Assembly: GCA_051866635.1 (NCBI GenBank) | Contig: JBJDXJ010000034.1 | Coordinates: 1 to 37,437 of the forward strand | From: Clostridia bacterium | Lineage (GTDB): Bacteria > Bacillota > Clostridia > UMGS1883 | Direction: 5' to 3' | DNA: 37,437 bases | Shown: positions 8,398 to 33,095 of the stretch, one piece after another | Layout of the letters: every line of letters starts with the position of its first letter | Numbering within the stretch: position 1 is the stretch's first letter | Translations under genes and position numbers: made by a program | Notes under the pieces: model-generated | Seen by the model: only the letters and a program-made list of their open reading frames with translations | Database searches by the model: none | What the model was told of the DNA's origin: nothing

Positions 8398-8437
8398 TTA
8401 TTTTTCTACAAAACAACCTGATGAACTTATTCTGTTT

Positions 8438-8461: not shown

Positions 8462-8469
8462 CAAAAACT

Positions 8470-8588: not shown

Positions 8589-8760
8589 GTTAAGACTTCT
8601 CCCAATATCCTAATCACCCAATCTTTGCAAAATGCACGATTTAGTTTGATTGTAATTCCTCATACGGCAATATTAGAAATAAACCTACTTGAAGTATCTT
8701 ATTTTTATTTATAATGCAACAACTTTGTATTAAAGCATTTGTATATAATGTTCAGTTATA

Positions 8761-9978: not shown

Positions 9979-10011
9979 AATATTTCTCCCTTTCATTATT
10001 TTAATATACTA

Positions 10012-10908: not shown

Positions 10909-10932
10909 ACAGTACCTCCTAATATTGTATAT

Positions 10933-11003
10933 ATTATACCACATTATCGGAACAAAATCAATAATTTCAACAGCATTATTTTGCATTTGTGCCGACATCG
11001 GCA
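10933..11003 (-). promoter_or_regulatory. sigmaA promoter and candidate operator for fic-HEPN
   Basis: TTGATT-17 nt-TATAAT with TGTG extension (10961-10933); palindrome TGCCGA-ca-TCGGCA at 10990-11003 and a related half site in the spacer. Confidence 0.65.
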
Positions 11004-11038
11004 TTTTCTTATTTATAATAAAAAAACAAAACACAATA

Positions 11039-11063
11039 GCCCTGTACCGCTTCGGTACAGGGC
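11039..11063 (-). terminator. Terminator after the large serine recombinase
   Basis: GCCCTGTACCG-ctt-CGGTACAGGGC 6 nt past the stop, followed by T-rich sequence on the minus strand. Confidence 0.75.
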
Positions 11064-11068
11064 CTCTC

Positions 11069-12595: not shown

Positions 12596-12630
12596 CTCAC
12601 CACCCCCTTCCTTCTAAAATTTTAGTTTAT

Positions 12631-12762
12631 TTACGCGGCTACATCAGAAATAACCGCTTCTTCCGTAGCAACAGCCTCGTATACCGCTTCCAGCAACGTG
12701 GTAATACTTGCCTCGTTACATTCCCTAAATACCATTTCAACATTTATTTCTCTTGAACTCAT
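12631..12762 (-). CDS. Small hypothetical protein (43 aa) upstream of the recombinase
   Basis: Read manually: MSSREINVEMVFRECNEASITTLLEAVYEAVATEEAVISDVAA*, GGTAGGTG RBS-like; fills the helicase-recombinase gap co-directionally. Confidence 0.55.
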   Translation of the reverse strand: MSSREINVEMVFRECNEASITTLLEAVYEAVATEEAVISDVAA

Positions 12763-12795
12763 AAAACACACCTACCAAACAATATTAGCTCAGGG

Positions 12796-12826
12796 CTACG
12801 ATGGTGGAAAATCCCCACCATCGTAG
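12796..12826. other. 12-bp perfect hairpin after the helicase gene
   Basis: CTACGATGGTGG-n7-CCACCATCGTAG; no clear U-tract, so attenuator/processing site/origin element rather than a classical terminator. Confidence 0.5.
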
Positions 12827-12837
12827 TCAGAAGCATA

Positions 12838-14361: not shown

Positions 14362-14596
14362 AAATTCGTCCTCCTATAAATTTTTTTATGATTTCAAACA
14401 TTGTCAAAATCTAATTGTGAAGTGGGTTACGTTCTGATATAATAATTATAAGAACATAACAGGCGCCATACACAACACCATTAGCTTGTCAACATCGTGG
14501 ACCACACACATAATATAATTTAAAAGTGAATAACTGTCATTCACTTTTGGAGGGAACTTATAAACGCAAAGTCCAAATTTTTTAGGAGGTCACGCT

Positions 14597-16030: not shown

Positions 16031-16099
16031 ATTTTCTGCTAAAAAAAATTGGGTTTTTTCTCTCATAATTTTGCTACAACCCGTCAACCTGACACCTTC

Positions 16100-16645
16100 T
16101 CATCCAAATCTGCGATAAAATGTGCTTTTACTTATCCCAAGCCTCCGTATGGCATCCGCAGCAGAAATCTGTCCATCTTTCCATTTCTTTACAACAGTAT
16201 CACTATCGGCAGGAAGCTTTTTGGGCTTCCTGCCTTTATATTTTCCCATGGATTTTGAAATGGCAATTCCCTCTGCCTGTCTGCTAAGAATATAACTTCG
16301 TTCAAGTTCGCTGACAGCACCGAATATCGTCAGCATAAATTTACCGGTCGCAGTAGTGGTATCAATAGCCTCCTTCTGACTTACAAACTCCACCTCTTTT
16401 TGTGTCAAAACATCAATAAGTTCTAAGAGGTCTCTTGTGTTTCTTGCAAATCGACTTATCTCACTTACAATTACCGTATCGCCCTTTCTTACATATGAGA
16501 GTAGTTTTTTCAACTGAGGTCTATCCGTATTCTTTCCCGATAATTTATCAATGAACACCTCTTCTACACCAAGCTCCTCCATCAACACCTCTTGCCTAAT
16601 CGTATTTTGCGTTGCTGAACTGCATCTAATATACCCTATCCTCAT
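16100..16645 (-). CDS. Resolvase/invertase-type small serine recombinase
   Basis: GYIRCSS, DKLSGKNTDRPQL, SRFARN, C-terminal HTH (LGISKSTFYR). Confidence 0.95.
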   Translation of the reverse strand: MRIGYIRCSSATQNTIRQEVLMEELGVEEVFIDKLSGKNTDRPQLKKLLSYVRKGDTVIVSEISRFARNTRDLLELIDVLTQKEVEFVSQKEAIDTTTATGKFMLTIFGAVSELERSYILSRQAEGIAISKSMGKYKGRKPKKLPADSDTVVKKWKDGQISAADAIRRLGISKSTFYRRFG

Positions 16646-16669
16646 TTTCCCTCTCCTTTCCCATTAGGG

Positions 16670-16770
16670 TATCGTTTGATTATGAAACGTCCCAAAAAAA
16701 CAAAAAACAATTCTAATGGAACGCTTTTAGATAGTGCCACTAGAGTATACTCAAATGACACTATCGTTCC
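16670..16770. other. Putative res site
   Basis: Nested dyads just upstream of the resolvase: CGTTT-n7-AAACG, GATAGTG...GAGTATACTC...CACTATC, GGAACG/CGTTCC; the usual position of res sites. Confidence 0.6.
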
Positions 16771-16970
16771 CGTTCCGATCTTTACATTCATTCCGCCATT
16801 CCTCGTGTATTTCGCTATAATTTCTACCAAGACTGTCGATGCTCTTTATAACCAACAAATCATCTTTTTTCAAAGCACAGTTTAACTGCTGTCCTTGTGG
16901 CTTGTGTAAATTTCCACCAATAGCTCTATTAAAGCCACCAAAACCAACTTTATGTACCTCATACTCTTGT

Positions 16971-17897
16971 CTACACTTCTAACCCGTACAGATAATCCTC
17001 AATTTCTTCAGGCGAAAATCCTTCTCTCAAAAGATGGTCAATCTCATCAGGCAAGTAACCATATGCACTCGCCACAGCCTTAAGTGTTTCTATGTATTCC
17101 CCGTACGGGTCCTCCGTTGTTTTCGTGGGGTGGAATGCATAATCATACCAACGCATACCGCTCCAATAGTCAAACTTGAAATGTTCCCTTTTAGTCTCAC
17201 CATTTGCGCACAGCTTTAAAATGTCCCCCTCTTCTATCTCTACTTCTTCAAATGCCCCCTGCTTTATTTCCTTAAACAAAGGCGGGTAATCAATAATACT
17301 TCTGTATAATATCTCGTCAGTGCTGGCAAACACATACATCTTTAACCGAGGAAAGTGAATTATCGATAACGGTGAGTCACCCTTCACTAAATAAACATTA
17401 TTCTTTTCATCCAATATCACGAAGGAAAATGACCCCTCAATCTTCTCTGCCATAAACCGAAGGCTTTCAAAATCCAACTTTTTCTGACACTCAATTAACT
17501 GAACGGCTATGTAACTGTCGGTCTCCACCTTAGTTGACGGGAGATTCAGCTCTTTTCTCAATCGTATATCGTTATTTATAACACCGTTGTGAGCTAAGGC
17601 AAATCTTATCTTAGCCCTGCCATAGAAAGGGTGGTTGTTGAAGTTTTTCTTTTCACTCCCCTGGGTTGAATGTCTCGTGTGACCGATTACAGCTTTAATT
17701 TCATCCCCATGCTTAAAATCAATCTTCATTGCAGATTTAGATTCTTTTAAAATTCTTAAGAGCCCTTTTGAATTAAATGCAATACCCGTTGCATCCACAC
17801 CTCTTACAGTGCTCTGGGCCGCTAATGAATTTGTCAAATCTGCAAGATTTTTAAGTTTAGCATCACCATAAATATGGAACCCAAAAAGTCCGCACAT
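16971..17897 (-). CDS. Class II (NTN) glutamine amidotransferase
   Basis: N-terminal nucleophile MCGLFG, RGVDATG, GHTRHSTQG, NNHPF, AHNG, TDS. Confidence 0.92.
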   Translation of the reverse strand: MCGLFGFHIYGDAKLKNLADLTNSLAAQSTVRGVDATGIAFNSKGLLRILKESKSAMKIDFKHGDEIKAVIGHTRHSTQGSEKKNFNNHPFYGRAKIRFALAHNGVINNDIRLRKELNLPSTKVETDSYIAVQLIECQKKLDFESLRFMAEKIEGSFSFVILDEKNNVYLVKGDSPLSIIHFPRLKMYVFASTDEILYRSIIDYPPLFKEIKQGAFEEVEIEEGDILKLCANGETKREHFKFDYWSGMRWYDYAFHPTKTTEDPYGEYIETLKAVASAYGYLPDEIDHLLREGFSPEEIEDYLYGLEV

Positions 17898-17899
17898 AA

Positions 17900-18997
17900 T
17901 TACATCTCCTCCGTTCCATTTTCAATCTCGTTCACGTAAAGCCTCTTTGACTTCAGGTAACGTATCAATTCCTGAAATTCAGGATTAATCTTAAGCACAA
18001 ATTCACTCCATGCCATATTTTCAATTTCTTTATCGCTTAAACAGATAGCGAAGCGGCAAATTTCATGTACAAGCTGAAGTGTTGCTATAAAAGTCTCATA
18101 CCTGAGCGTGCCTCGCCACATACGAAATTCCACTGTTGAATAGTTCTCAAGGTTCACAGCTACATACCTGCCTAAATGCTTGTCCTTCGCTTTTTTGTAC
18201 GTATCCTTAGCACTGTCAGAAATACCATAGCGACTTGCCCAACGCTGAAGGTTTGCTTCCGTTCTTCGGCTGAAGCGGACAAGTTCATTCCAGTGAAGTT
18301 CAAAGAAATGTACAATTTTTGCAATAACTGCTTCCTGCTCCTCATAGGTTTTACCAAAAGCGGTTTTATTTACATGAACATGTAACCCGCAGGTGTCTGT
18401 CTGATGGCTTCTGTAATGCATTCGAATAGCCTGTTCGAACACATCTCCCCATGGCATTTTATGTATATGATAATCCAAACTCATGGGATGACTTACAATC
18501 TCAAAACCGTCATCCAAGCTTCCGTCATGCTTACAGTAAATCCTGTCACTTCCGGCAATCTCAATAAGTGCCTGTGCATTATCGTGCAACTCTTCGCCTT
18601 CATCAATCTCCAATTCAACGCCCATAAATAAAATACCCGAGCCGTAAAATATTGGCTCAGGCTTATATGAGTATGGCTTTATTGCCGCTTCCTCAAGCTG
18701 CACATAACAGTTATGGCAATAAGGAATATCCCCATCCTCTTCATAATATGTGTTGTTACTATGTATAATTCTGCCGCAGGTCTCACAGGTGTTGTAATTA
18801 TCGTCATAACAGTCATTGCATACAGCGATATTCCCATCACTGCGGAGGTCGCTATTCCATACCCTATCCCCGCAGTCCTGACAGATACCGGTGTTCCCCT
18901 CTAAGCACTCTTCACAGTAGTAATTACCCTGAAACTCTCTTGCATCCTCTTCATTTAACACAGCACCACAAATGGCACATGTAATTATCTCATTCAT
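17900..18997 (-). CDS. Amidoligase (COOH-NH2 ligase type) with N-terminal CxxC zinc-ribbon repeats
   Basis: Six CxxC pairs, then GVELE, HDGSL..GFEIVSHP, CGLHVHV, RYVAVN, TVEFR. Confidence 0.88.
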   Translation of the reverse strand: MNEIITCAICGAVLNEEDAREFQGNYYCEECLEGNTGICQDCGDRVWNSDLRSDGNIAVCNDCYDDNYNTCETCGRIIHSNNTYYEEDGDIPYCHNCYVQLEEAAIKPYSYKPEPIFYGSGILFMGVELEIDEGEELHDNAQALIEIAGSDRIYCKHDGSLDDGFEIVSHPMSLDYHIHKMPWGDVFEQAIRMHYRSHQTDTCGLHVHVNKTAFGKTYEEQEAVIAKIVHFFELHWNELVRFSRRTEANLQRWASRYGISDSAKDTYKKAKDKHLGRYVAVNLENYSTVEFRMWRGTLRYETFIATLQLVHEICRFAICLSDKEIENMAWSEFVLKINPEFQELIRYLKSKRLYVNEIENGTEEM

Positions 18998-19009
18998 TTT
19001 CTTTCCCCC

Positions 19010-19297
19010 TTAGTATTCATAATTCATCAGCATAGTCGAATGTGTTTCATCATCTATCACAAACACCTTGCCTTCAATTACTTCGCCGACGTCAAATTTG
19101 TGTTCACGTCTGTACTCAGGTTCCTCCTGTTCGTGAACCACCACCTGCTTTCCCTCTTCTTCAGATAAAGAAAAAACCTGTAAATAGTCTTTACTATCTA
19201 CAGGCATTTCGTCTATCAACTGCCATAAAAGCATTTGAAGAAGCGGAGGGATATTTTCGTCAATCCCTCTTGTTATAAATCTTTTGTTGTCAAACAT
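19010..19297 (-). CDS. DUF960 family protein
   Basis: RFITRGI...DYLQVF...HEQEEPEY...KVFVIDD...TMLMNYEY pattern; GGAGG RBS. Confidence 0.8.
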   Translation of the reverse strand: MFDNKRFITRGIDENIPPLLQMLLWQLIDEMPVDSKDYLQVFSLSEEEGKQVVVHEQEEPEYRREHKFDVGEVIEGKVFVIDDETHSTMLMNYEY

Positions 19298-19415
19298 ACT
19301 TTAACCTCCTTTGTTTTCAAAAATATAATATATGTTTCCTTCGCTCAAAAATCCAAAATTAAAACTTAATTTTTAATAACATTAAATTAATAATAAACTG
19401 AAAGGAGAAAATCTA

Positions 19416-19604
19416 ATGTTTGAAAACCCTAATGATATTCTGTCCCCTGAAGAGGCGATGTTGGAACTTCAGATTGGCAAAAATGCAATTTACATACTTT
19501 TAAATAGCGGTAAATTAAAGGCTTTCAGGATAGGTCGCAACTGGAAGATACCGCGTAAATCAATAGACGCATATATCGACAGCAACATAAACTTGAAAGG
19601 ATGA
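19416..19604 (+). CDS. Excisionase-family (HTH_17) DNA-binding protein
   Basis: LSPEEAMLELQIGKNAIYILLNSGKLKAFRIGRNWKIP; AAGGAG RBS. Confidence 0.85.
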   Translation: MFENPNDILSPEEAMLELQIGKNAIYILLNSGKLKAFRIGRNWKIPRKSIDAYIDSNINLKG

Positions 19605-19611
19605 CAAAATA

Positions 19612-20250
19612 ATGGAACTACATAATTTCTTACAACACCTTACCATTCGCATAGATGTTAAAAGTGAAAACGAGGAAACAATATCAGCCACAGGATTCTT
19701 TGCAAAACTTAACAATGAAGATGTCCTCATTACAGCAAAGCATGTAGCGGAAAAAGCAAGCACCTGTACATTACATCTCAGATATAAATCAGATGATGAA
19801 ATTTTAACTGAAGCAGTTAGATGTAATCTCAACTGGCAGACAACACTGGGTTCATACTTAGCATTCTGTAAACTGGATTCTATCAAAGAACAATTCAAAA
19901 AAGTTACAAAAGCAGACCTATACTACATAACCTTAACCGAAGAAAATATCCTCCCCGAAGCTGACGATCTGTTATATGAATTAATCAAATTCATCACCAT
20001 AGGCTATGTCCCTGATGGAGCAATTGTTCGATGCGGCAGTATCCTTATGCCCATGTCAGATATGATTGACGATGATTTAGATTTAAGTATTACAGGCTTC
20101 TCCGGCTCACCTGTTTTCACTAAGGATAGACAACTCCTCGGCGTCTCACTCCAATCCGAAACAGATGACTTGTTCGCCTCAATTGATGCCACCGCATTTG
20201 CTATGAATTTCCATTTAACCGCTCTGAAAAATCACTGTAACTTACAGTAA
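19612..20250 (+). CDS. Trypsin-like serine peptidase domain protein
   Basis: ATGFF...LITAKHV (His) and GFSGSPVF (Ser); 7 nt after the HTH gene; no signal peptide. Confidence 0.75.
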   Translation: MELHNFLQHLTIRIDVKSENEETISATGFFAKLNNEDVLITAKHVAEKASTCTLHLRYKSDDEILTEAVRCNLNWQTTLGSYLAFCKLDSIKEQFKKVTKADLYYITLTEENILPEADDLLYELIKFITIGYVPDGAIVRCGSILMPMSDMIDDDLDLSITGFSGSPVFTKDRQLLGVSLQSETDDLFASIDATAFAMNFHLTALKNHCNLQ

Positions 20251-20297
20251 ACAAATAACGTGTAATCGCATCTGCGATTACACGTTATTTGTTTACT
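20246..20297. terminator. Perfect 25-bp inverted repeat; bidirectional terminator-like palindrome
   Basis: AGTAAACAAATAACGTGTAATCGCA-tc-TGCGATTACACGTTATTTGTTTACT between convergent stop codons. Confidence 0.7.
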
Positions 20298-20406
20298 TCA
20301 CTCTAAAATTGTAAACCTCGAAAGCTTTTCCGCCCTTATTTTCAACAAGAGCAAGGGTGTCAAGCACATCTGCCGAATTTCTGAATCCTACATTTTCGGC
20401 TACCAA
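20293..20406 (-). pseudogene. 3' fragment of a paralog of the 25833..29090 GH43 protein C-terminus
   Basis: Translates LVAENVGFRNSADVLDTLALVENKGGKAFEVYNFRVK* versus LVAENVNFRVEAEYIDTLALVENKGGEMFEVNNFTVK*. Confidence 0.85.
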
Positions 20407-20845
20407 TCCACTTGCAATATACCTCTTCCCAATTTTCAGGTTTTTTTGTTTTAGGTCTCCCCATGTGTTTGTTCCGCTTCTTTGCCGAGTCTATCCCTTC
20501 ACGCTGTCTTGCACGTATTGTAAGGCGTTCCTGTTCTGCGATTGTGCCGAGTACTTCAATCAGTATGTTATTAACCATATCAAATACCCATTCCTGCCCG
20601 GGTGGCAACTCCATCATTGTTGTGGGCAGGTCAATAACCCTTACTCGAATATTGTTGTCCTTAAAATATTGCAGCTCATTCTTTATGTCCGCTTTGTTTC
20701 GGCTCAATCTGTCAAGGCTCTTTACTACAAGCGTATCTCCGCCACGTAACATAGCATTTTTCAACGCCTGATATCCTGTCCTTTCTAAATCCTTACCGCT
20801 TTCCTTGTCACAGATAATTTCCCGCTCATCTGCATCAAGGTTTTT
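20407..20845 (-). pseudogene. Resolvase remnant lacking the catalytic N-terminus and the C-terminal HTH
   Basis: DKESGKDLER...GDTLVVKSLDRLSRN...AEQER...RQREGI...GRPK present; no YxRVS motif; part of track ORF 20360..20854. Confidence 0.85.
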
Positions 20846-20899
20846 AATTTCCAAATAATCAAGATACTTTTTAAACTTGTCCTGTGCAGAAAGGCAGGT
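20846..20899 (-). pseudogene. 3' fragment of a second fic gene, fused in frame to the resolvase remnant
   Basis: Translates TCLSAQDKFKKYLDYLEI versus TCLSAQDKFKRYLEYFKV at the end of Fic 10012..10908. Confidence 0.8.
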
Positions 20900-21029: not shown

Positions 21030-24000
21030 CTAATAACAGCTTTTTGCAATCGGAATTAGTTTTTTCTCGTTGTCTGTCCACGCAAAAGCCTTAACTATAT
21101 CATTTTCACTCACGTTAAGCTCTATGGGATAATCCTTTTCTTCATCTTCATTAAGCTCTGCCGTTATGCTCACAACTTCCTTCAACTCATTATATTTGCC
21201 GAACACTCCAACAAAAACTTTAGCATTCAAATATCCGAAGCCCACATTCTTTACATTAACTTTCAGTTCTTCATTTTCTTCCTTAAATGCAAGCTCCACA
21301 GGGTATTTTCCTATCTTAACATCATCAAAGCTGAAATCTCCTGTGTTTCCTTCTCCCCAAAAGTCTCCCATAGCAATCGTGTCGCAGTATGTCATTGTTT
21401 CATCTTGTGCAACTAATTTTCCGTCAATGTACATATTTACCCCATTGCAGGATGAATAATCCCACAAAAATTCGTGCCAACCTGTCTCTCTTGTCACTTC
21501 TGTAGCATACCAATCACTTCCCATTCGGTAAACATATTTATCTGTCGAGGTTGAAGTTTTTACCCCCATTCCTCGCCACTCACTTGTGCTTTTTGCCGAA
21601 TCTGCTCTCGCTATGCATTGTTGATTGCTTCCGTCACAACTGTCATAGAACCAAACACATACTATATCATTGCATTTTTCAGGCAATTTTTTCGATATTG
21701 CTTCCAAATCTCCCTGCACACTGTAGCTCTTTTTTCCGCTATGTGCTCTGTTTTCTGTTATCTCAGGGGTTCCGTAATAACTACTCCAGCCTTTCATTCC
21801 TTCTTCAAAGCTGTCTTTCTTAAACTCCCCCAAAAGATTTACCTCATGAACCGAGAAATCTGTGTAGCTTATCTTACCTGCCACCCAGCTGGACTGGAAT
21901 AACAGTTCATTACTTTCCGCCGTATATACACAACAAAGCTTCTTCCATCCGTTTGTGCTTGTCTGTCCTATTTCGTTTCCGAAATCATACACGCTCACGC
22001 TTCCGTCTATCAGCTTATTGTACTGAAGGTTGTTCGATGATATGCTTCCTTCAAGGTTTACGAAAAATTCCACATAATATTTCTTTCCTTTTTCAACCTT
22101 CCACTTGGTTCCTATGCTGTTTGCCGCACTCTGTCCGCCAAGACCGTTCTTTGCCCTAACTCCCTTCTCGGCTTCAATTTCTGCTTCATTTACGCTTATT
22201 ATTTCAAAGTTTTCCTGGTTCAGTTCATTTCCGACTCTGTCATACCATCCTGTGAAGCCATATGCGAAATCCCCATTGACTGCCTTGTTACTTCCTTTGA
22301 TTTCGTACTCTGTTCCGTCAATCGTTATCTTTTCTCCCGCAGTGTATTTTGAAGCGTTTTCAACTGCTTTCAGTTCTATAACACAGCTTTCGCCTATTAC
22401 CTGTGCTTCTGCCGCATACAAAACTCCGCTTCCGTTTTTACTCACCGCCACTGCGTCAAAAAGTGCACCCTCTTCCTTTGTATGGTCGTACACCCTTGTC
22501 TGACTTTCTATAACCTTTCCGTTATAAATATAGTCAACAGAAACCTTTGTTTCGTTTTCGGATGGAGTAGAATACACCGCAAAGTCACCAAGAGACATAT
22601 TTACCCATATACTGCTGTCTGCCTTGGCTGTGCTTTCAATCTTCTTAAATCCGTTTACGCTTTCGTATTCTTCTCTATATGTTTCATTACCGTTCACATA
22701 ATATATTACCGACCAATTGTCTCCCATATCTTCAAACTTTATCTGACATGTATCTCCCTGGTCCGGCAAGCCGAATTTATGAGTAGAATCTGCCTTTTTG
22801 CACCTTGTGTCAAAGTCCCATGTTGCGATTGTATTTGAGTCATTATCAATGAATTTCATCACCTGATGGTTTACTCCTGTTCTCATGGTTCTGGAGTAAT
22901 AGAACTGTATTACCATCTCTTTCTTGTTTTGTCCGTATCCCGGTGAAACTACAGTTGCTGTCATATCACTTGCAACATTCGAGCTTTTGTAGAACTCTAT
23001 ACCGTTTGTATAGTTGCCTTCCTTTGTGTCTATCGGGAATGTTTCAAGGTCTGTTTTGAAATTGGAGCTTGTTGTACTCTTGCTCCAGCCCGACCATGTG
23101 GAAATGTTTGCTGTACTGTAAGGCTTCTTTTCGTCATATGCCTTTTCATAGCTGTCAATTTCTCTGCCCCATTCGCAAATATATTCCGACATATCAATAC
23201 TTTTTTCGGGGATTGCTTCAACACAATACGTCTTACCGGGCTGAACAGAGAATGTAATCTTATCATTGCCATCAGCATCATATGTTACAGCGTTTCCGTC
23301 ACTGTCAGTGATAACACAATGTGCAACATTGTCATACATAAGCTCTATATTATCTCGTGTACTGTTCTCGTCCACTGTAATATTAAGCTTTGTCATTACT
23401 CCGTTTTCCATTGCTGCTTCAACAACAGTTCTCTGAGTTGCCCAAAGCTTATAGTCGACATCCCAATCCTTCGGCCATGCCACAAAAGGTGCTATAACAT
23501 CGCCCTTTGCCTGAAGTGCCATTTCCTGAAGTCCCATCGAGCCTGTTCCGCCCCAGTTATGGTCAGGTGTCCAGTCGTGACCGGGACCCCAGAACGCAGG
23601 AAATCTCTTAGAAGCATTCTTCATTTTCTTAACGGTTATATCCTTAGCAATATCCGTAAGACCTACTCTTGCGGCATAAATGTTTGTATAGTGCCAGCTT
23701 ATATGGTCTTTTTGGGAATTGTTGAGTGTGTACCATGTGGATTGTGCAATGTCAATATCCTTCTCACCGTTTACAACACCAACAAGCTCAAAGGGGAATA
23801 CAACGTATGTCTGTGGTGCTTCGCAGTTTTTAAGGAAATATGTATCTCGGTCATAATATCCTTCTGCCATATCTCCCGGATGCTGACCGGGCTTATACAC
23901 CTTGCCGTAGTCTGAATCTTCAACTGTCATTTCGGGAATTCTACCCTGTAAATCTTTCCATCTTTCAACGTCTATATCATCATAGCCTTCTTCATAAAGG

Positions 24001-25721
24001 AATATGAGATCCTCTATAACGGCATTAATACCTGCAATAGTGTCGTTGGGATTAAGCACATTTTTATACGTTTCAACTGCTGTTGAAGGATAGATTACAA
24101 GCTTTCCGTTTTCGTCATAACCGTCTGTACTGTTAGGATTGTACTGCTTGTATCTCATTTGATAATGTTCTTGGAAAAATGTAAGAGCACTTTCGATGTA
24201 ATGTATATATTTACCGATATCTATGCCTGAGTAGCGATAGTAATCTACCATCATATGTGCAAAATCAAGCTGATGTATATATTCATATATAACATAAGAA
24301 TTTGCTACAATGCCCTCTTCAACGTCATCTCTATCCGCCCATTGATACAGATAACCTGCACTGAGTCCGTAATGAGTGGGGTATTCATTAAATGCGGTAC
24401 CGTTATGTCCCCAGTAGGCCTTTACAGTTTGCTCATTATTTCCGCAACCGTTGTTGTAAAAATCCAACTCGGATTCCATTGTATCAAAATCTCCCGATTT
24501 GAGCATAGGCCAGAACAAAAGTCTCTGATTTTGTGCAGTCATGGTAGCTCCGCCCCAGTTACGGTAATCGGGATCACCATTATACTCCCATGTGAACAAA
24601 CCACCATTAAATTTTGTAGGTATCTTACCAAAGGCGTTACAACCCTGCATATATCTGAACAATGTGTAGTTTCTTGCAACCTGCCAACCTGTATCTGCCT
24701 CAATCGCTCCGTCATTTACAAATATATGACTTCTCTGCCAGTATTCATTCCACCATTCTTTACTATCTTCATGGGAAGTGGATGCTGCCATTCTTTCGTC
24801 CAGCACTGTTTCCAATTCTTCCAAAGTGTCTGTTTGGTCGGAATATGTGGCAATTTTTATATGATGACTTGTTGCGGCTTTTTCACTTACCAAAGACCAT
24901 AACTTATAGTTACAGCCCGAATATGTGCCACTTGTAATCTCGCCTGCAACCATGCCTTCGCCATTCATTTTGCCGCCATATGTAAAGTTTGTAACAGGGT
25001 CATACCATGTATCCCAGTCAATTTTGCCTTCCATGCCCTGTTGTTTTATAATTTTGTGCATCGCAAGGTCGGTGTTGTCATTTCTGTGATAGAAAAAGAC
25101 ATCATTACCCTGATAAGTGATATTATCCTTATGCTTTGTGGTGTTACCCGGATAATCTTTAAAATCCCAGATGGCATTGCCGGGGATTGTTGATGTTGTG
25201 TACAAAATATCATCGTATCTCCAGCTTAAATACTCAGCTTTTAATTCAACAGCCTCTTCACTTGTCACACAGGCGTGTATAACACCGTTGTAAACATCAA
25301 CCCATACGTCAATGGAGGTTTCCTTGTCCTTTGCATCAATTGCCGTAATTGTAACATACCCCTCTTTAAGTTTTAATTCCTGCTTAAAGCTTACGGCATT
25401 CTCAAATGGGTTTGGCGTTAAATTAAGTTTTACCAATCCTAATTTAACAAGCTGATTATTTTCATCAAAGGCATCGCTCTTGCCTATGTAAAAATAAACT
25501 TCATTATTCTCCACCCATAAGTTAAGCCCTAAATCATGACCGCCCACAGGCATTGATTCTTCCGAGGATTTACTTTGACTTGTCCATATTACATTGTAGC
25601 TGTCATATACCATCTTTTCCACCTCTTCCTGACTTTCTATTTTCATTTTACTTTCTGCAGGAAGATCGGGCAGTAGAGATAAACTCACCATTAAACACAT
25701 TAAAAATGCCATCTTTTTCAT
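21030..25721 (-). CDS. Secreted modular glycoside hydrolase, DUF5703/GH95-like (alpha/alpha)6 fold (possibly GH142-type beta-L-arabinofuranosidase) with CBM4/9-like and lectin-like modules
   Basis: Signal peptide; SMPVGGHDLGLNLWVE, DYRNWGG..TAQNQRL, FWGPGHDWTPDHNWGG..GLQEMALQ; VNGDFAYG module; family call from recall. Confidence 0.75.
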   Translation of the reverse strand: MKKMAFLMCLMVSLSLLPDLPAESKMKIESQEEVEKMVYDSYNVIWTSQSKSSEESMPVGGHDLGLNLWVENNEVYFYIGKSDAFDENNQLVKLGLVKLNLTPNPFENAVSFKQELKLKEGYVTITAIDAKDKETSIDVWVDVYNGVIHACVTSEEAVELKAEYLSWRYDDILYTTSTIPGNAIWDFKDYPGNTTKHKDNITYQGNDVFFYHRNDNTDLAMHKIIKQQGMEGKIDWDTWYDPVTNFTYGGKMNGEGMVAGEITSGTYSGCNYKLWSLVSEKAATSHHIKIATYSDQTDTLEELETVLDERMAASTSHEDSKEWWNEYWQRSHIFVNDGAIEADTGWQVARNYTLFRYMQGCNAFGKIPTKFNGGLFTWEYNGDPDYRNWGGATMTAQNQRLLFWPMLKSGDFDTMESELDFYNNGCGNNEQTVKAYWGHNGTAFNEYPTHYGLSAGYLYQWADRDDVEEGIVANSYVIYEYIHQLDFAHMMVDYYRYSGIDIGKYIHYIESALTFFQEHYQMRYKQYNPNSTDGYDENGKLVIYPSTAVETYKNVLNPNDTIAGINAVIEDLIFLYEEGYDDIDVERWKDLQGRIPEMTVEDSDYGKVYKPGQHPGDMAEGYYDRDTYFLKNCEAPQTYVVFPFELVGVVNGEKDIDIAQSTWYTLNNSQKDHISWHYTNIYAARVGLTDIAKDITVKKMKNASKRFPAFWGPGHDWTPDHNWGGTGSMGLQEMALQAKGDVIAPFVAWPKDWDVDYKLWATQRTVVEAAMENGVMTKLNITVDENSTRDNIELMYDNVAHCVITDSDGNAVTYDADGNDKITFSVQPGKTYCVEAIPEKSIDMSEYICEWGREIDSYEKAYDEKKPYSTANISTWSGWSKSTTSSNFKTDLETFPIDTKEGNYTNGIEFYKSSNVASDMTATVVSPGYGQNKKEMVIQFYYSRTMRTGVNHQVMKFIDNDSNTIATWDFDTRCKKADSTHKFGLPDQGDTCQIKFEDMGDNWSVIYYVNGNETYREEYESVNGFKKIESTAKADSSIWVNMSLGDFAVYSTPSENETKVSVDYIYNGKVIESQTRVYDHTKEEGALFDAVAVSKNGSGVLYAAEAQVIGESCVIELKAVENASKYTAGEKITIDGTEYEIKGSNKAVNGDFAYGFTGWYDRVGNELNQENFEIISVNEAEIEAEKGVRAKNGLGGQSAANSIGTKWKVEKGKKYYVEFFVNLEGSISSNNLQYNKLIDGSVSVYDFGNEIGQTSTNGWKKLCCVYTAESNELLFQSSWVAGKISYTDFSVHEVNLLGEFKKDSFEEGMKGWSSYYGTPEITENRAHSGKKSYSVQGDLEAISKKLPEKCNDIVCVWFYDSCDGSNQQCIARADSAKSTSEWRGMGVKTSTSTDKYVYRMGSDWYATEVTRETGWHEFLWDYSSCNGVNMYIDGKLVAQDETMTYCDTIAMGDFWGEGNTGDFSFDDVKIGKYPVELAFKEENEELKVNVKNVGFGYLNAKVFVGVFGKYNELKEVVSITAELNEDEEKDYPIELNVSENDIVKAFAWTDNEKKLIPIAKSCY

Positions 25722-25770
25722 AATGTAATCACTCCTCTTGTTTTATTATAATGCATACTAAAATGGAATT

Positions 25771-25810
25771 ATAAAACCACGGTGCGTTGGAGGGTTCACC
25801 GTGGTTTTAT
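25771..25810 (-). terminator. Intergenic hairpin (terminator or mRNA stabiliser)
   Basis: ATAAAACCACGGTG-n12-CACCGTGGTTTTAT, 14-bp perfect stem after the GH43 stop. Confidence 0.7.
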
Positions 25811-25832
25811 GTTAAATAAATTTACTGCAGAT

Positions 25833-28800
25833 TTATTTTACAGTAAAGTTATTAACCTCAAACATTTCACCGCCCTTGTTTTCAACAAGAGCCAAAGTAT
25901 CAATATATTCTGCTTCAACACGGAAGTTCACGTTTTCTGCAACTAAAACACCGTTTAAATATAGGTTATATGTGTCTGAAAGCACGCCTGCTTCAATCTT
26001 TACACTAACCGCTTCGCCCACTGTATAGTCGGCAACCTTTGTTTTGCTCTCATTGTCACGTGTATAGATTTCGCCGTTTGCAAAAAGTATAACAATACTG
26101 CCGGTTGCGAAATAGTTACGGCTTGAAGAGTTTAACACATTGCTGTCGCCTAAAATAATACCGCTGTCTTCGCTGCCGTTATCTGTAAATGTAAAGTCGT
26201 AAACAGCCGCTTCCGTCTTTGCAGGAATATCTAAAAAGGCGTTTTCGTTCTGATTAGAGGATACAGCCCTTTCAAAAACAGGCTCTGCTTTATATCGTGC
26301 CATGCTTTCTCCAATAGGTGTTATAACATCGCCTGTGCGTACCATCAGCCTTACTTTTTTTGTGCCCTCGGGTGTATTACTTGTGATAAGCTGCACACCT
26401 TTTTCTGAAAGAATGGTTGTACCAAGACCTATAAGCTCACCTTCATCGCTGTAAAAAGCTGTGTAAAGCTTTAAGGGCTCATCGTCATAATACATAACAG
26501 TACCTGTCGTGGCATCTTCATCTGCATAAAGGTTAAACACCCTCACACCCAAATCCGATACAACTATGTTTTTAACAGTGAATAATCCGCCCGACACATA
26601 GTTACCGGCTCTTACGGTCACCTTACCTATTTCGTCAGCTTTAAAACGGAAAGAAAAGTCCTTTGCAACAGTTCCGCTGTTGCCGTAGTCATCGGTAACA
26701 TAAACACTGTAGACTTGATTTGTCACATCAACATCCAAAAAAACATGATATGTAATATCGGTTCTGTATTCTATTTCTTCGGTTTTTGCGTAATCACCAA
26801 GGTTTCTTGCATCGAAGAAATTATCGGGGCGTATTCTGAATGTAATCGGATAATCACCCCAGTCAGTTGGCGTTTCATCAGTTGAACAAAAAGCCATCAT
26901 TCCGTCGCTCGCTTCTTTCACAATCAAATCAAAGGAAATATAGCCCCGGTCTTTTATTGAGCCTACATTTATTGTGCCAAAGCTTGCTGTTGATAAATAG
27001 TCTTCGCTCTCTGCGGGAACAAGCACGTTATAATCTTTGTTTACAGTTTCACCGTCGGCTTCATAAATTGCCGTAAGTGTTATATATTCGTCGCTTTCGC
27101 CTCTGTTTGGTCTGTTAACGGTGCCGTCCTTTGATATAACACTACCGCCTGAGTATGTAACAGAGGTTCCAAAGTATGATTTAAAGGGGATATTTTCCGT
27201 AAGTATACTGCTTATTTTTTCGTTATACTTTAAGTCAAGTTCAATTTTGTCATTTCCCGACAAATACTCTGTGCTTTGCTTTGCAAGGGTTACTCTACTT
27301 ACAGAATACGCATCATAATCTTCTATTTTTTCATTTGAAAGACAAATTTTGTTTATTTCGCTTCCGTCCTCACGCCCCCAAACATTGATAATGTAGGCAT
27401 CTGCCCGGGGGAAGTTTATCTTCCACACATCATCACTAAGCCACATATTTTCGCCAACGTTGTCCTCGCCTGTTGAGGTGAAAAGGTATTCACCGTCCAC
27501 ACCTATATGCAAGCTGTTGCCTGAAATATCAGGGTGTGATGTGTTAAGTGCAACATAATAATCCCCGGGCTCTGCTATAAACACTCTGTAGTAAAGGCAA
27601 GGCGCTTCGTTCCTTTTATCAGTATCGCGCCACTCACCGCTGCGGTCGGGAAGAATTTCCAAGCCTGTTTCTGTTTCCGACCAATAGTGATAGTCACGGG
27701 TAGAATTAAATGCAACTTCGCTGTTTTTCAATGCATCTTTTGCATTTATCATAACAACGCCGTTTTCACCAATGTAGGCACGAGCACCAATGTTGGTTGC
27801 CTCCACAGTAAATGTTACTGCGGCACCGTCATATCCTCCGCCGCCCACACGGATAGTTATACTTATTTTCCCTGTGTCCAAGGCATAGAAAGTAAGCTCG
27901 CTGCCGTTAAGCTCCATATCAATTTTATCCGTATCGCCCTCAAGAGATAATATATGGGGTGTTTCCCCTGTAATTGAGTTAATCCTTGTTTTGTAAACAT
28001 CACCGGGCTTTAATGTAATATTGTTAACCTGGTCAACGCCGGTTTCATCTACCCAGCCATCGATTGTCCACTCGTCTTTCCATTCAATCTTAAAGGTTTC
28101 ACTTCCTGTAAATTCAATGGGGAGCCAAATATAACGGCTATCGGAATGATTACTTGGTCTCCATATATCCGCCATAAATATAAATTTACCATTATCCTTG
28201 TCTACAGGGAATACATAACAGCTTTGTCCGCCAAAGGTTATGTCTGCATCATCACCCTCGCAAGGGTTACCCTTACTATACCAAGGGCCCATAGGGTTAT
28301 ATGCCACTGCAGAATCTGCCTTGTTTGGGTCCCAACCCGAGCAACCGCTGTTTACCATAAAATATCTGTTTTTGTATTTAAAAACCGCAGGTGCTTCTCT
28401 CTGCCAGTTTTCAAAAAGCTTGGTGTATGTACCTTCAATGCCCAAATAGTCGTCAGTCAGCTTGTGGCAGTACATTGTCTTATTATTATCGCCCGAGGCG
28501 TAGAGATACGCCGTTCCGTCATCGTCCACAAAAAGTGTCATATCACGTGCCATTTTACCGTTAGGACGGTATGATGCCAAATACTTAAAAGGTCCTGTAG
28601 GGCTGTCACTTACCGCAACACCTGCTCTTGCATAAGAGTAGTCAGAGTAGTCAACGTGCAGCCACATAACGTATTTTCCTGTTTTTTCGTTATAAATTAC
28701 CTTTGGTCTTTCAAGAACTCTATAGGGCTGGATATCGCTTTCGGGATAATTGCCTGTATAATAATTCAAAACCTTTAATGCCAGTCCCTCGTATGTCCAG

Positions 28801-29175: not shown

Positions 29176-29176
29176 A

Positions 29177-29242
29177 AAAAGACCTGCTAAAATCAAAAAA
29201 AATTTCAAAAAAATTTTCTCGATTTTATTTAGCAGGTCTTTT
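29177..29242 (-). terminator. 15-bp inverted repeat downstream of the peptide gene
   Basis: AAAAGACCTGCTAAA (29177-29191)/TTTAGCAGGTCTTTT (29228-29242) with a 36-nt A/T spacer. Confidence 0.55.
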
Positions 29243-29338
29243 GGTTTCATTGACGCGGAGTTGGAGGAAACCTCATAAATGAAACATTTATTCTGAAATA
29301 TGATTAATTTTAAATTAAATTTACTGTCTTATGCCTTA

Positions 29339-29479
29339 TCAATCCGCAATCATCCAGCCACTTTCGTCATCGTAGTTATCATCGACAATATCAACTTGGG
29401 CATTATCAAGATTGCTGGTGAGGAGAATATCTTCCAATTCCATGTTGTCAAAAATAGGGGTAGTGTAGGATTTTTTCAT
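29339..29479 (-). CDS. 46-aa acidic peptide with YxxP...EDILLTS leader-like motif (absent from ORF track)
   Basis: MKKSYTTPIFDNMELEDILLTSNLDNAQVDIVDDNYDDESGWMIAD*; GGGAGG RBS 9 nt upstream; starts 17 nt after the stop of the upstream gene. Confidence 0.8.
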   Translation of the reverse strand: MKKSYTTPIFDNMELEDILLTSNLDNAQVDIVDDNYDDESGWMIAD

Positions 29480-29496
29480 ATTTTTCATCCTCCCTA

Positions 29497-32400
29497 TCAG
29501 ACTGTAGGAGTTGTGAATGTAAATGTAAGAACTCCGTTTTCATCAATTGTAACATCAGAGATGTTATTTTTGACAACAGAATTGTTGTTGTTAATTCTTA
29601 CATATTCTGTCCACCAGTTGGGTTTGATTTCAACTTTTGTATTAAAGTTTTCATCGGGAGTAACAGTAATCAGATATGTTCCGTCATCGTTCTTTACAGA
29701 TTCTACATTAAAGAATATATCGCCTGTATAAGCGCCTGCTCCTGTCTCTCTTGCAGAAACTGTGCCGTCAGATTTAAGAGTAAGGCGAATACCAACCTGA
29801 TTTACATATGCCTGCAATACGTTTATAAGTGCCTTGTTTTGCATTGAATAATCATCATTTGCATCTTCGCCGTTGTCAGAAGCTGTCACACCGTTTTTAA
29901 GCAAGCCTGCCGCAACCTTATAAATGCTTCTTGTAACACTATCATTTCCTGTAAATTCCTGTCCGTCAACCTTTACATAAGGTGTTGTAGTAAAGTTACG
30001 GTTGTAGTTATTTTCTTTAAGGTCAGTAAGTGCCACTGTGAAAATGCCGTCTTCTTCGTTCTGGAATTTTTCAGCCTTTATATAAACAGCTACATCGCTT
30101 TCCTGGGCTGTAATTTTAATACCGTATTCTGCACCTTCTACATTTACAAGGGAGTCATTACGGTCTACCTTGCCGATAAATCTTAAGCCGTTGCCGCTTA
30201 ATACCTTACCCGTTTCGTCAACACCGCCGCCGTAACGAACCTGTGCACCGGAAACTGTGCTTACACCTAAAATTGCAGTAGTATAGGCACCTTCAACGGG
30301 ACGAACGTCACTTTCTACCCTATAGACCTTTGTGTAATCGGTAAATGCTGCAATATTTTCATTTTCGGAGTAAAATCTTACGGTATCGTTTTCTGTCATT
30401 ACAAATTCTTTGCAATTTTTTAATAAGCTACCATTCTTCGTTATGCTCGAAGCACCTGACACCTGAACTGTCCATGCACCACACACCTCAAGATACGATG
30501 CTTTGCCCTCGTATGACTTTCCGTACTCTGCATTTTCACGATTTACAATGTATGCACCTGCCGTAGGAGCATAGAGTGCAAAGGTAATTTTATCCGTCTG
30601 CGCATTTTCAATTGCCTCAGTTACATCAATAGATATCCACTTATCACATGGATTTTTTCCGTCATCAGATGTACTTACAGCAATAACAGAATCCTTTGAC
30701 CAAAGTAATCCCTCAAGGCTTGCAACATCGCCAACATTGTACATTGCGAGTTCATTTACCTGTATATCAACAACATTTGCAGCTATACGCATGGAATTGT
30801 TTATGCCCAGATTCTGATTTGTATTTGCAACATAAACATTCAGTTTAACTGCATCGCCTTTTTTATAATTTTCGGGGATATTGAAAGTGAGAAGTGGTAT
30901 CCTGGCGCTTCCAAGTACTCCGCCACTTCCAACAGTGGCAGAATTATCCTCATCCTGATTGGGTGCATTACTTAGCCCCGACGCTCCAACAAAGAGCATA
31001 TCTCCGCTGTTGTCTTTGTTTCCGGGGTCACTTGCCGTTACCGCATAGGTATCATCTAAAACAGCATTTTCATGTATAATTTCCAGCTTTACCTCGTATG
31101 TTTTTTCGTCATCATCTTCTGTGACAATATGACTTTGCTCTTCGCAGGAAGCAATATATGCCTTATCGCCTATGCGTACATAAAAGGCCTCTGACGCGGG
31201 AAAATCGTAAAGTGTTTCGCCGACAATATAGCTCTCTGTTGTACTTGCAATAATCTTTTCTCCATCAGTATAGTTTACTGTAACATTAACTGTATCGGTA
31301 CTGCAATAAACTCTTATATTATCTGCGTGGAACTGACCTTCATATTCCCCTCCGTTTGTAAGTATTGACAAGCAATCAATAACATCCAAATTTGTTCTGA
31401 AGCCATAATTTGTAACAGTTGTTTTGACTCCCTCCGGATCAGTGAGTGTCAGAGAATATTTATCCGTGGATGCATTCGCTTTTATCATTATTCTGTATAC
31501 AGTATCCGTTGAGAGGGTCGTGTGAACTACATCGGGGTTTGTGTTTCTTCCACCGGTGCCGTTACCGTCTACACATCGAAATCCACCCGATGAATTGACA
31601 CCAAAAAGGATTTGGTCAGGACCAAAGTAGTTTTTAACACTGCTATCCTTAAGCATAATCCATTCATCACCAAATTCCTGCCATACCACATCCATCTCAA
31701 TTATAAATTCATCCTCAATCGAAACAGGGAATTTTTTCATGTATGTGTCAGCATCTTCCTGATTTTTTAACGAATACATGCCTTCGAGTGCAAATGTTTC
31801 TGGATAAACCGTAACAGACGCAGTAGCAGGTGCACCTGAAGCGTCACCTTTTACGGTAACGATTTTAACCTCTTCTGTATCGTTGGAATAATCAGCATCT
31901 TCCCATACAACTTCTGATATGATTTCTTCACCATCTGATTTTTTAACTCTTACAGTCTTGGGCAAAACAGGCTTATTTCCGTCAATAACCGTTGCTGTAA
32001 CCTCATCAAGCACCGTGTCTGTGTCGACACTTATAAGCTGTATGTATGGCTCATAATCGCCTTCAACGGAAAGGTTAATTCCGTTTACAGGCACCTGAAA
32101 GCGAAGTACAACCTGGCTTTTACCTGCACTTACAGCATTGTAAACAGCCTTTGTTACATCAACCTTCGCCCATCCGGATGTTGAACCGATACTTCCGCTT
32201 GCTGTGAATTTTTCATCGGACCACATTGCCGCAGAATAAGAATAATCATTATTTACTGCTGCAAAGTCTGATGCATTCATACCTCCTACGTTATATGTAA
32301 GCGAAGGGTTTTCTGTCTCATACACCGCAAAACGCATCCAGTTACCGCCAAGGTTTCCGTTTACTGAATTTACATATACGTTCAATGTCGCCTTTATTAT

Positions 32401-32697
32401 TTTGTTCAAGTCTGCACCTTCAACTGAAAATGCCATAACACCTATTCTTGTGCTGCCAAGCCTTGTGGATGCCGACGCAGTATCTCCCTCAACATAAGGT
32501 GCGCATGTGCTTGAGCCTGATGTGTCGGGGGCATCCACTGTTGCAACCAAAATACCTGTCCCCAATGCGGTTCCGCTGTGTCCGTAGCCTACAAGCTCAA
32601 GAGTTGTTTCGCTTACTTCTGCAAACGCAACAATCCCTCCGGGAACAACCCCCAAAAGCATGCTTACTGCCAAAATTAAGGATATTACCTTCTTCAT
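29497..32697 (-). CDS. Secreted, apparently non-catalytic surface protein: two DNRLRE-like modules, Ig-like and lectin-like modules, conserved C-terminal domain
   Basis: Signal peptide MKKVISLILAVSMLLG (alternative ATG at 32706); internal repeat (LNVYV..VN.NLG...MR.A); middle and C-terminal regions align by eye with the 339..5993 protein. Confidence 0.82.
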   Translation of the reverse strand: MKKVISLILAVSMLLGVVPGGIVAFAEVSETTLELVGYGHSGTALGTGILVATVDAPDTSGSSTCAPYVEGDTASASTRLGSTRIGVMAFSVEGADLNKIIKATLNVYVNSVNGNLGGNWMRFAVYETENPSLTYNVGGMNASDFAAVNNDYSYSAAMWSDEKFTASGSIGSTSGWAKVDVTKAVYNAVSAGKSQVVLRFQVPVNGINLSVEGDYEPYIQLISVDTDTVLDEVTATVIDGNKPVLPKTVRVKKSDGEEIISEVVWEDADYSNDTEEVKIVTVKGDASGAPATASVTVYPETFALEGMYSLKNQEDADTYMKKFPVSIEDEFIIEMDVVWQEFGDEWIMLKDSSVKNYFGPDQILFGVNSSGGFRCVDGNGTGGRNTNPDVVHTTLSTDTVYRIMIKANASTDKYSLTLTDPEGVKTTVTNYGFRTNLDVIDCLSILTNGGEYEGQFHADNIRVYCSTDTVNVTVNYTDGEKIIASTTESYIVGETLYDFPASEAFYVRIGDKAYIASCEEQSHIVTEDDDEKTYEVKLEIIHENAVLDDTYAVTASDPGNKDNSGDMLFVGASGLSNAPNQDEDNSATVGSGGVLGSARIPLLTFNIPENYKKGDAVKLNVYVANTNQNLGINNSMRIAANVVDIQVNELAMYNVGDVASLEGLLWSKDSVIAVSTSDDGKNPCDKWISIDVTEAIENAQTDKITFALYAPTAGAYIVNRENAEYGKSYEGKASYLEVCGAWTVQVSGASSITKNGSLLKNCKEFVMTENDTVRFYSENENIAAFTDYTKVYRVESDVRPVEGAYTTAILGVSTVSGAQVRYGGGVDETGKVLSGNGLRFIGKVDRNDSLVNVEGAEYGIKITAQESDVAVYIKAEKFQNEEDGIFTVALTDLKENNYNRNFTTTPYVKVDGQEFTGNDSVTRSIYKVAAGLLKNGVTASDNGEDANDDYSMQNKALINVLQAYVNQVGIRLTLKSDGTVSARETGAGAYTGDIFFNVESVKNDDGTYLITVTPDENFNTKVEIKPNWWTEYVRINNNNSVVKNNISDVTIDENGVLTFTFTTPTV

Positions 32698-32719
32698 AAA
32701 TTCCATTCCTTCCTTTACT

Positions 32720-33095
32720 TTATTTATTTTTTACTTTTACAATTATTTCTTCCTCGGTTTTATTGCCTGCAAAATCAGTAACATAAATAACAACAGGGTA
32801 GTCTCCCGGCACTGTTACATCAAGATATGATACATCTGCACTATTCTTTCATTTGCGTCCAAAGCCAGCCTATATCAAAAGGACGGATACTTATTTTTCT
32901 GGCTTCGCCGTAAAAATAGTATTTCTGTGTTATTTCGTCCCAGATAACACGGCCGCCATGTGCCTGTATGTGTCCGCCGTTATTGTCGTACCATAACTCA
33001 CCTGGCTGTATGCTGTAGTAATCCTGTGCAAAAGCGCCCTCTGCGCATATTAAAACCATTATTATTGTCAAAACAGTCAAAAAAATCTTTTTCAT
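32720..33095 (-). pseudogene. Internally deleted, frameshifted paralog of the GH43 gene 25833..29090
   Basis: First ~70 aa nearly identical to that GH43 N-terminus; frameshift after WL; then in another frame DVSYLDVTVPGDYPVVIYVTDFAGNKTEEEIIVKVKNK* (Ig-like/DUF5011-type tail) ending at 32720. Confidence 0.85.

Follow-up and report, generated by a model that had tools for sequence, protein, structure and literature searches.

The window examined in this study is a 37,437-nt stretch of DNA from a Clostridia bacterium (GenBank assembly GCA_051866635.1, contig JBJDXJ010000034.1, positions 1 to 37,437). Our subject is a small open reading frame (ORF) at 29339-29479 that we regard, from its sequence, its homologues and the purifying selection acting on it, as a candidate precursor peptide gene. 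It lies on the minus strand, as do the single window genes and motifs given with coordinates below, and comprises 46 codons plus a stop codon. The product, MKKSYTTPIFDNMELEDILLTSNLDNAQVDIVDDNYDDESGWMIAD, is a Cys-free peptide of 46 residues whose C-terminal part is rich in Asp. A Shine-Dalgarno-like GGGAGG (29489-29494) stands 9 nt 5' of the ATG at 29479, and the paralogues within the genus have AGGA- or GAGG-type sites ahead of their own ATG codons. An alternative in-frame ATG at 29488 was rejected as the start, since it leaves zero spacing to the ribosome-binding site (RBS) and adds residues that are not conserved in a 67%-identical relative (P0003).

Immediately upstream is a large gene (29497-32706) whose product has Big_4 and CBM96 domains according to a domain scan and, by eye, a signal-peptide-like N-terminus; the protein is 1069 aa long from the first ATG and 1066 aa long from the MKKVISL start. 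The distance from its stop codon to the ATG of the small ORF is 17 nt. A first-pass annotation of this DNA had picked out an ORF with a GGGAGG RBS, 17 nt behind a secreted protein of 1066 aa, and both the coordinates and the sequence agree with it; the Asp-rich tail that it described is apparent in the translation. Downstream of the small ORF, a long hairpin followed by a T-run (approximately 29176-29243) is the likely terminator of a unit formed by the large gene and the peptide gene. RNA folding of this hairpin gave a z-score of -4.87, and none of 200 shuffled sequences folded equally well. A scan with a terminator consensus detected nothing between the large ORF and the peptide ORF; the same scan also missed the downstream hairpin, the loop of which is too long for the rule. 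Judged by its position, the small ORF would sit in the 3' part of the transcription unit of the large gene.

Conservation and selection

The host genome (2.33 Mb in 63 contigs, 96.6% complete) belongs to a genus that we label g1, within family f1. It contains two paralogues of the window peptide, each 46% identical to it. A four-sequence profile found 18 places distributed over all 10 g1 genomes; the six other genera of family f1, represented by 54 genomes, yielded no match. When 1.84 billion representative proteins were searched with HMMER, 45 matched at E<=1e-3, and 44 of these, the window peptide among them, are peptides of 35-65 aa that share the same layout; the remaining match is a protein of 1875 aa that aligned solely over an acidic stretch. 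The family has no Pfam or NCBIfam entry, and the ESM Atlas returned merely unnamed clusters of small peptides (scores 0.89-0.90). A strict leader pattern selects 3 small ORFs in the 2.33-Mb genome, namely the window ORF and its two paralogues, and none in the reversed genome.

Selection was estimated from nonsynonymous (dN) and synonymous (dS) divergence, excluding 7 pairs with saturated dS. Orthologues of type C have a mean dN of 0.22 and a mean dS of 0.93 (dN/dS 0.24, 35 pairs), and those of type B have a mean dN of 0.15 and a mean dS of 1.09 (dN/dS 0.14, 8 pairs). Among the closest orthologue pairs, dN is 0.017-0.07 at a dS of 0.5-0.9 (for example, dN 0.017 with dS 0.81). The first-pass annotation had named homologous small ORFs with coding-type conservation as a test of its proposal, and such ORFs exist in every one of the 10 g1 genomes, with dN/dS values of 0.14-0.24. 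We also considered that the ORF might be a frameshifted tail of the large protein; this was ruled out by its own RBS and ATG and by gaps to the upstream gene that range from -1 to 384 nt. On this comparative sequence evidence, the small ORF is a genuine, conserved gene under purifying selection.

Layout of the peptide and the nearest known system

The closest described system is that of the linear polyphosphorylated peptides (LPPs), made by lppA-K-B-S-D-N of Paenibacillus alginolyticus DSM5050 (Popov et al., Nat Commun 2026, PMC13381572). According to the main text of that paper, LPP precursors follow the consensus YxxPxVLxHQxIxFETxxS, and their leaders contain the motif [Y/W]xxPx[L/V/I/F/A], which is bound by an RRE, the recognition element of RiPPs (peptides made on the ribosome and modified after translation). 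LppB is a discrete PqqD-type RRE that contacts leader residues Y-16 and P-13. LppK, an HprK-like kinase, adds several phosphates to core Ser3, the sole phospho-site of LppA, and LppS, a SipW-like peptidase that requires LppB, cleaves after T-1. Cleavage needs F-3/E-2/T-1, and the unphosphorylated precursor is a poor cleavage substrate. LppD is an MsbA-like exporter and LppN a nucleoside triphosphate (NTP) transferase; what LPPs do biologically is given as unknown. The laboratory host employed in that work was B. subtilis 168. The paper covers Bacilli and capsule loci, and 'Clostridi', 'surface' and 'orphan' do not occur in its main text (PMC13381572).

In the alignment of the 44 peptides, Tyr5, Pro8 and Ser22 are invariant, and Lys3, Leu19 and Asn26 are nearly so. 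The N-terminal half follows the consensus MKKxYxxPx(F/L)..EL.LED(V/I)(L/I)xxS, and the C-terminal half is acidic, contains a few aromatic residues and frequently ends in F-x-F or (I/L)(A/V)D. By its Tyr5-x-x-Pro8-x-Phe10 motif and by analogy with Y-16, P-13, V-11 and T-1 of LppA, we predict that residues 1-19 (29423-29479) form a leader. The same analogy would make residues 20-46 (29342-29422) the core, an acidic, Asp/Asn-rich segment ending in GWMIAD. The predicted cleavage site is directly preceded by Glu16-Asp17-Ile18-Leu19 and would lie between Leu19 and Leu20, in agreement with the earlier suggestion of cleavage around LLTS as far as the LPP analogy carries. Ser22 (codon at 29414-29416) would then be core position 3 and, from its invariance and its counterpart in LppA, is the predicted phosphorylation site. 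The spacing from Tyr to Ser is 17 residues in the window peptide, 18 in type C and 19 in type B. An AgrD-like or double-glycine leader was considered and dropped in an informal comparison, as the peptide has neither a Cys nor a GG/GA site.

Pairing with genes for secreted proteins

The large upstream protein ends in a conserved C-terminal module of approximately 255 aa (29500-30264; GAQVR..GLRF..RSIY, then ..RINNNN..TFTFT), of which the host genome has about 15 copies. An AlphaFold2 (AF2) model shows the module as two beta-sandwich domains with a mean predicted local distance difference test (pLDDT) score of 68.9, and a Foldseek search of the PDB with this model returned no match below E 1e-3, with only generic Ig/CBM-like beta-sandwich matches above that value. 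A second window protein with the module (1889 aa, 339-6008, module at 345-1091) has no peptide gene behind it.

All 18 peptide copies in g1, which represent about five paralogue lineages, are on the same strand as, and -1 to 384 nt behind, a gene ending in the module. Seen from the other side, a peptide gene follows 3 of the approximately 15 module-bearing genes in the host genome. Outside g1, in genus g7 and further families of the class, 28 of 29 small ORFs follow a same-strand ORF of at least 150 aa that ends -1 to 239 nt upstream, the single miss being located at a locus edge. The leaders of these small ORFs are related (e.g., MMKKYNKPEIVTLALD.VDVIETS), and the g7 peptides mostly end in W-x-W. 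Nineteen upstream ORFs in this set have an intact N-terminus, and 18 of them look signal-peptide-bearing by a crude rule; three loci beyond the pattern (L093, L099 and L103) have the same arrangement as judged by eye. Profiles of the two module domains built from the genus found a sole, weak match (L044, E 1e-4) among the upstream proteins of other genera, so that the constant partner of the peptide gene is a secreted protein rather than the module. Adjacency of the peptides to this C-terminal domain family, which the first-pass annotation proposed to test, holds for the 18 copies in g1; however, a peptide accompanies only 3 of about 15 module genes in the host, and the partners in other genera, bar the one weak match, are without the module at the level of sequence.

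At two loci (L020 and L017), the upstream proteins have acidic C-terminal tails like the peptide cores, and DPAGNDGFD is common to these and to type-C peptides; here, the upstream stop overlaps the peptide start as TAATG. On host contig C16 (about 22967-27600, minus strand), a protein of 1539 aa, GH43-like/LamG-like by eye, fuses the module directly to a domain homologous to a secreted protein of 343 aa, the one located behind type-C peptides, and it has no peptide-like linker. The constant pairing of peptide genes with secreted-protein genes is new: a literature search found no description of these Clostridia peptides or of their pairing, PMC13381572 being the sole relevant paper and its supplementary lists lying outside the search.

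Candidate maturation enzymes in the host genome

Homologues of LPP-type enzymes are spread over host contigs C1, C6, C33, C49 and C58, and none is clustered with the window peptide. Against a cut-off of 23.4, two stand-alone PqqD genes score 65.7 and 55.7 bits. The one on C58 is directly followed by a gene for an MsbA-like ABC exporter (ABC_membrane plus ABC_tran). The other, on C6, is part of a row consisting of a kinase-like gene, a 54-aa ORF, the PqqD gene and a SipW-like peptidase gene, followed by membrane and sugar-epimerase-like genes. The 54-aa ORF (L026 6923-7087, minus strand) has a related leader, MKKCEYEYEPPKAKIYRFDDNDRILTESGIDEETYDYAAFALNRFFGGTNTTIE, and is a second candidate precursor. 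The C6 cluster runs on into genes for a polytopic membrane protein of 774 aa and an epimerase-like protein.

Against PDB sequences, the PqqD profile matched TbiB1 (7e-11) and the LppB chain 9x8z_B (1.6e-8). The equivalents of LppB N33, Y60, D70 and F74 are retained: N35, Y62 and D72 are invariant in a seven-sequence alignment, and the genus-conserved protein also has F76. Two NTP_transf_5 genes were found as well (148.9 and 119.7 bits, cut-off 31.2). A second, genus-conserved SipW-like peptidase gene (C1:3060-3491, minus strand) overlaps the start of a secreted-protein gene, the product of which is GH43-like by a short motif read by eye.

The kinase-like proteins share an invariant P-loop, SGxGKxTH. 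The kinase-like model (pLDDT 92.5) matches PEPCK and HprK/P in Foldseek with E values of 5e-6 to 1e-4; the assignment as an HprK-like kinase is a prediction by fold, the sequence matches being sub-threshold. From the sequence comparisons, the kinase-like and peptidase-like proteins of the host are distant relatives of curated families. A second kinase-like gene, conserved in the genus, is located on C49 and overlaps the end of an SLH-protein gene. The g1 SLH protein (448-509 aa; in the host genome within the region C49:12953-15027, minus strand; loci L108 and L111), whose gene runs into the start of the kinase-like one, has an acidic tail that ends in SK(E/D)WW plus one or two residues. Within the system, this protein might act as a further substrate or as a wall anchor.

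Enzyme linkage and spread in relatives

In a genome from another family of the same order (G070), the components form one minus-strand row: a 531-aa secreted protein, the peptide (MKKEYLEPSFEVLLFEDDDLILTLSGLDGSEDDFWGDIESEGDNDVNIEDIW), an SLH protein, a 148-aa ORF, and then the kinase-like, PqqD, SipW-like peptidase and ABC exporter genes. The SLH protein of this row (L093 6620-7634, minus strand) has a tail, ..DNFVDIDEIW, that resembles the neighbouring peptide end, ..DVNIEDIW. A kinase-like gene is about 1 kb from the peptide gene in G075, and in G302 a peptidase-like gene immediately follows the peptide gene. In three genomes with type-B peptides (G016, G019 and G020), a PqqD-ABC pair lies 7-13 kb from the peptide gene; this was not accepted as functional linkage, as metA and other housekeeping genes intervene. 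Across the order, 76 of 87 genomes have PqqD, 74 have the kinase-like gene, 64 have the peptidase-like gene and 43 have peptide matches.

Predicted complex of PqqD and the peptide

We co-folded the genus-conserved PqqD (7-row alignment) with the peptide (19-row alignment). The pair scored 0.44 in three runs, the best of 3 controls scoring 0.00; the pLDDT of the partners was at least 52, and contacts agreed between runs to at least 91%. In the benchmark, the counts of which are approximate here since we used our own alignments, 116 of 157 solved complexes attained the mark, as did 2 of 215 mismatched pairs. Passes with a score of 0.60 or below came from 18 of the 157 solved complexes and from both mismatched pairs. 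The model lends weak support to the idea that the genus-conserved PqqD may bind the peptide, and since solved RRE-leader complexes exist, the pass may reflect likeness to them.

Surroundings of the locus

The window neighbours of the pair encode large GH43, ricin-lectin, F5/8-C and DUF5703 proteins. An 84-aa ORF (32841-33095) that belongs to no Pfam or NCBIfam family is flanked by two genes for large secreted proteins. At 6668-20854, a mobile-element island lies amid the carbohydrate-active-enzyme genes and contains an AAA_14/DUF4143 ATPase, a Fic protein, a large serine recombinase, a D5-type primase, two resolvases and a GATase_6 plus Amidoligase_2 pair.

Discussion

The small ORF probably encodes a ribosomal precursor of a Clostridia-type branch of the LPP pathway, a reading drawn by analogy with the Paenibacillus system. 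The comparison below refers to the main text of the LPP paper (PMC13381572). The window peptide has the N-terminal YxxPx(hydrophobic) site in the form of Tyr5, Pro8 and Phe10; a Ser stands 17-19 residues after the Tyr, at what would be core position 3, type C matching LppA exactly with its spacing of 18; and the C-terminus is variable and no cyclase is found. The host genome has genes for an HprK-fold kinase, a putative SipW/archaeal-type peptidase that lacks a membrane anchor, an MsbA-like exporter and NTP_transf_5 proteins, and its RRE retains the Asn, Tyr, Asp and Phe that grip the leader Tyr and Pro. Of the options raised in the first-pass annotation, the best supported is that of an orphan, RiPP-like precursor which enzymes encoded elsewhere process in trans, given a leader that fits the LPP class, enzyme genes on other contigs and the gene row of G070. 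By analogy, a stand-alone PqqD-type protein would recognise Tyr5-x-x-Pro8-x-Phe10, the HprK-fold kinase would phosphorylate Ser22, and a cytoplasmic SipW-like serine peptidase would cleave the Leu19/Leu20 bond. The ABC exporter encoded beside the PqqD gene may then export the acidic core of 27 residues, and co-transcription with the secreted protein would bring both products jointly to the cell surface.

There are also differences, and a number of observations weigh against this assignment. Relative to the LPP consensus (PMC13381572), the window family is without HQ and F-3/E-2/T-1 and has (E)D(V/I)(L/I) before x-x-S; it is therefore not a canonical LPP member. Searched against the PDB, the peptide profile missed the LppA leader and gave just non-significant matches to lasso leaders (E 0.37 and 1.8). 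The kinase-like protein reaches 25 bits against the ScmC model (cut-off 125), and the kinase-like profile matched nothing significantly among PDB sequences. The two peptidase candidates, one of which adjoins a PqqD gene, score 43.1 and 19.5 bits against TIGR02228 (sigpep_I_arch; cut-off 51.85). As the first-pass annotation had said, the window is devoid of RRE, peptidase, cyclase and radical S-adenosylmethionine (rSAM) genes, which holds for the 20 ORFs scanned (19 of the 33 of at least 100 aa, the 14 that overlap longer ORFs being left out, plus the 84-aa ORF at 32841-33095). The enzyme genes of family f1 (genera g1 and g7) are dispersed; with no maturation gene in the 37-kb window either, peptide and enzymes are connected by motif and co-occurrence only. 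Co-occurrence in turn discriminates poorly, since the enzymes are far commoner in the order than detectable peptides; genus g3, for instance, has the enzyme genes and zero peptide matches. Two further differences concern the product and its setting: the core of the window peptide is strongly acidic, and the precursor gene, rather than being clustered with the enzymes as in the described LPP system (PMC13381572), is directly behind a secreted-protein gene, the enzyme genes being scattered and core-gene-like (64-76 of 87 genomes in the order).

Two other kinds of system resemble the candidate pathway in part. Paeninodin-type phosphorylated lasso peptides, as they feature in the main text of the LPP paper (PMC13381572), share the [Y/W]xxP leader, a discrete B1/PqqD protein, an HprK-like kinase, an NTP transferase and an ABC exporter. 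By contrast, the host genome lacks a B2 cysteine protease, no lasso cyclase is associated with the peptide, and a linear product would be expected. The SynChlorMet/HPr-rel-A families (NCBIfam TIGR04249 and TIGR04352-04355) give the best NCBIfam matches of the kinase-like and PqqD proteins, but at 25-33 bits against cut-offs of 125-200 these are sub-threshold and do not amount to membership.

Several alternatives to an LPP-type precursor have to be weighed. The peptide, or its exported core, may bind the two-domain C-terminal module of the upstream protein as an anchor, cofactor or assembly factor, an idea that is compatible with LPP-type maturation; standing alone, it would leave the leader-like motif unused for maturation. 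It draws on the position of all 18 g1 copies behind module genes (same strand, -1 to 384 nt), on the two TAATG overlaps, on the acidic, peptide-core-like tails that the upstream proteins of L020 and L017 and the SLH protein of G070 bear as fusions, and on the 28 of 29 small ORFs in other genera that follow a gene of at least 150 aa within -1 to 239 nt. However, just 3 of about 15 module genes in the host are followed by a peptide gene, and in other genera the module is absent from the upstream proteins bar the weak match at L044, the pairing there being with secreted proteins generally. The 18 copies fall into about five lineages that may have duplicated along with the module and are thus not independent. 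Moreover, the module is extracellular and the peptide has no signal peptide, so an export route is required, which an LPP-type pathway would supply. As an explanation in its own right, we judge binding to the module to be unlikely. In another proposal, the YxxP leader would direct the peptide to the genus-conserved PqqD-ABC pair as a mere address tag, the peptide would be exported unphosphorylated, and the kinase-like gene would serve other substrates such as the adjacent SLH protein. In g1, PqqD is indeed always paired with the ABC exporter and not with the kinase-like or peptidase-like genes, the kinase-like gene overlaps the end of the SLH gene with its acidic ..WW tail, and 2 of the 9 other g1 genomes, both of them 73-89% complete, gave no match to it. 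Yet an address tag alone leaves the invariance of Ser22 (44 of 44) unexplained, the kinase-like gene of G070 is in the same row as the peptide, and, according to the main text on the characterised LPP system, the unphosphorylated precursor is poorly cleaved (PMC13381572). This proposal appears distinctly improbable to us.

A conserved ORF might also have no function as a peptide and owe its persistence to translational coupling, to mRNA stability or to hitch-hiking with a duplicated gene end. Its constant presumed location within the 3' end of another gene's transcript would fit, whereas a dN/dS of 0.14-0.24 at a dS near 1, residues that are invariant across 44 clusters, and retention of the gene despite gaps of -1 to 384 nt and varied downstream contexts would not, and make this very unlikely. 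There is even less to recommend a lasso-peptide or rSAM RiPP precursor, the pathways with which the first-pass annotation had associated the YxxP-hydrophobic motif. That motif is shared with lasso leaders, which are also the only, non-significant, PDB peptides found by the profile, and both PqqD proteins match lasso PqqD models best, although below the cut-off. Against a lasso pathway, the B2 protease (PF13471) has no match in the genome, and the two strong Asn-synthase (PF00733) matches, which fall on other contigs in open frames of 610 and 533 aa, show nothing that links them to a peptide and are presumed to be housekeeping AsnB. Against an rSAM pathway, the single SPASM enzyme is the SCIFF maturase (TIGR03974, 689 bits), and the core is Cys-free. 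These origins can be set aside almost entirely, and an LPP-type precursor is the reading that we carry forward.

The pairing with secreted proteins suggests a further idea, one that we put forward as speculative and on balance doubtful: that the LPP-like machinery is a chromosome-wide service system rather than a secondary-metabolite cluster, that every precursor gene would lie inside a transcript for a secreted or surface protein, and that the exported, phosphorylated acidic peptide would be the dedicated extracellular partner (anchor, cofactor or docking tag) of that protein. Acidic aromatic tails of this kind are at times fused to the protein itself or to an SLH wall-anchor. Because the precursor genes are away from the enzyme genes in family f1, cluster-based genome mining misses such precursors. 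That precursors are wired into transcripts for secreted carbohydrate-active proteins, with enzymes that are housekeeping-like across the order, would point to a role at the cell surface rather than as an antibiotic, and the peptide together with its neighbouring protein may offer a direct experimental handle on what LPPs do. If the idea is true, this order of gut-type Clostridia would possess a RiPP-based system for the surface display or assembly of glycan-degrading proteins.

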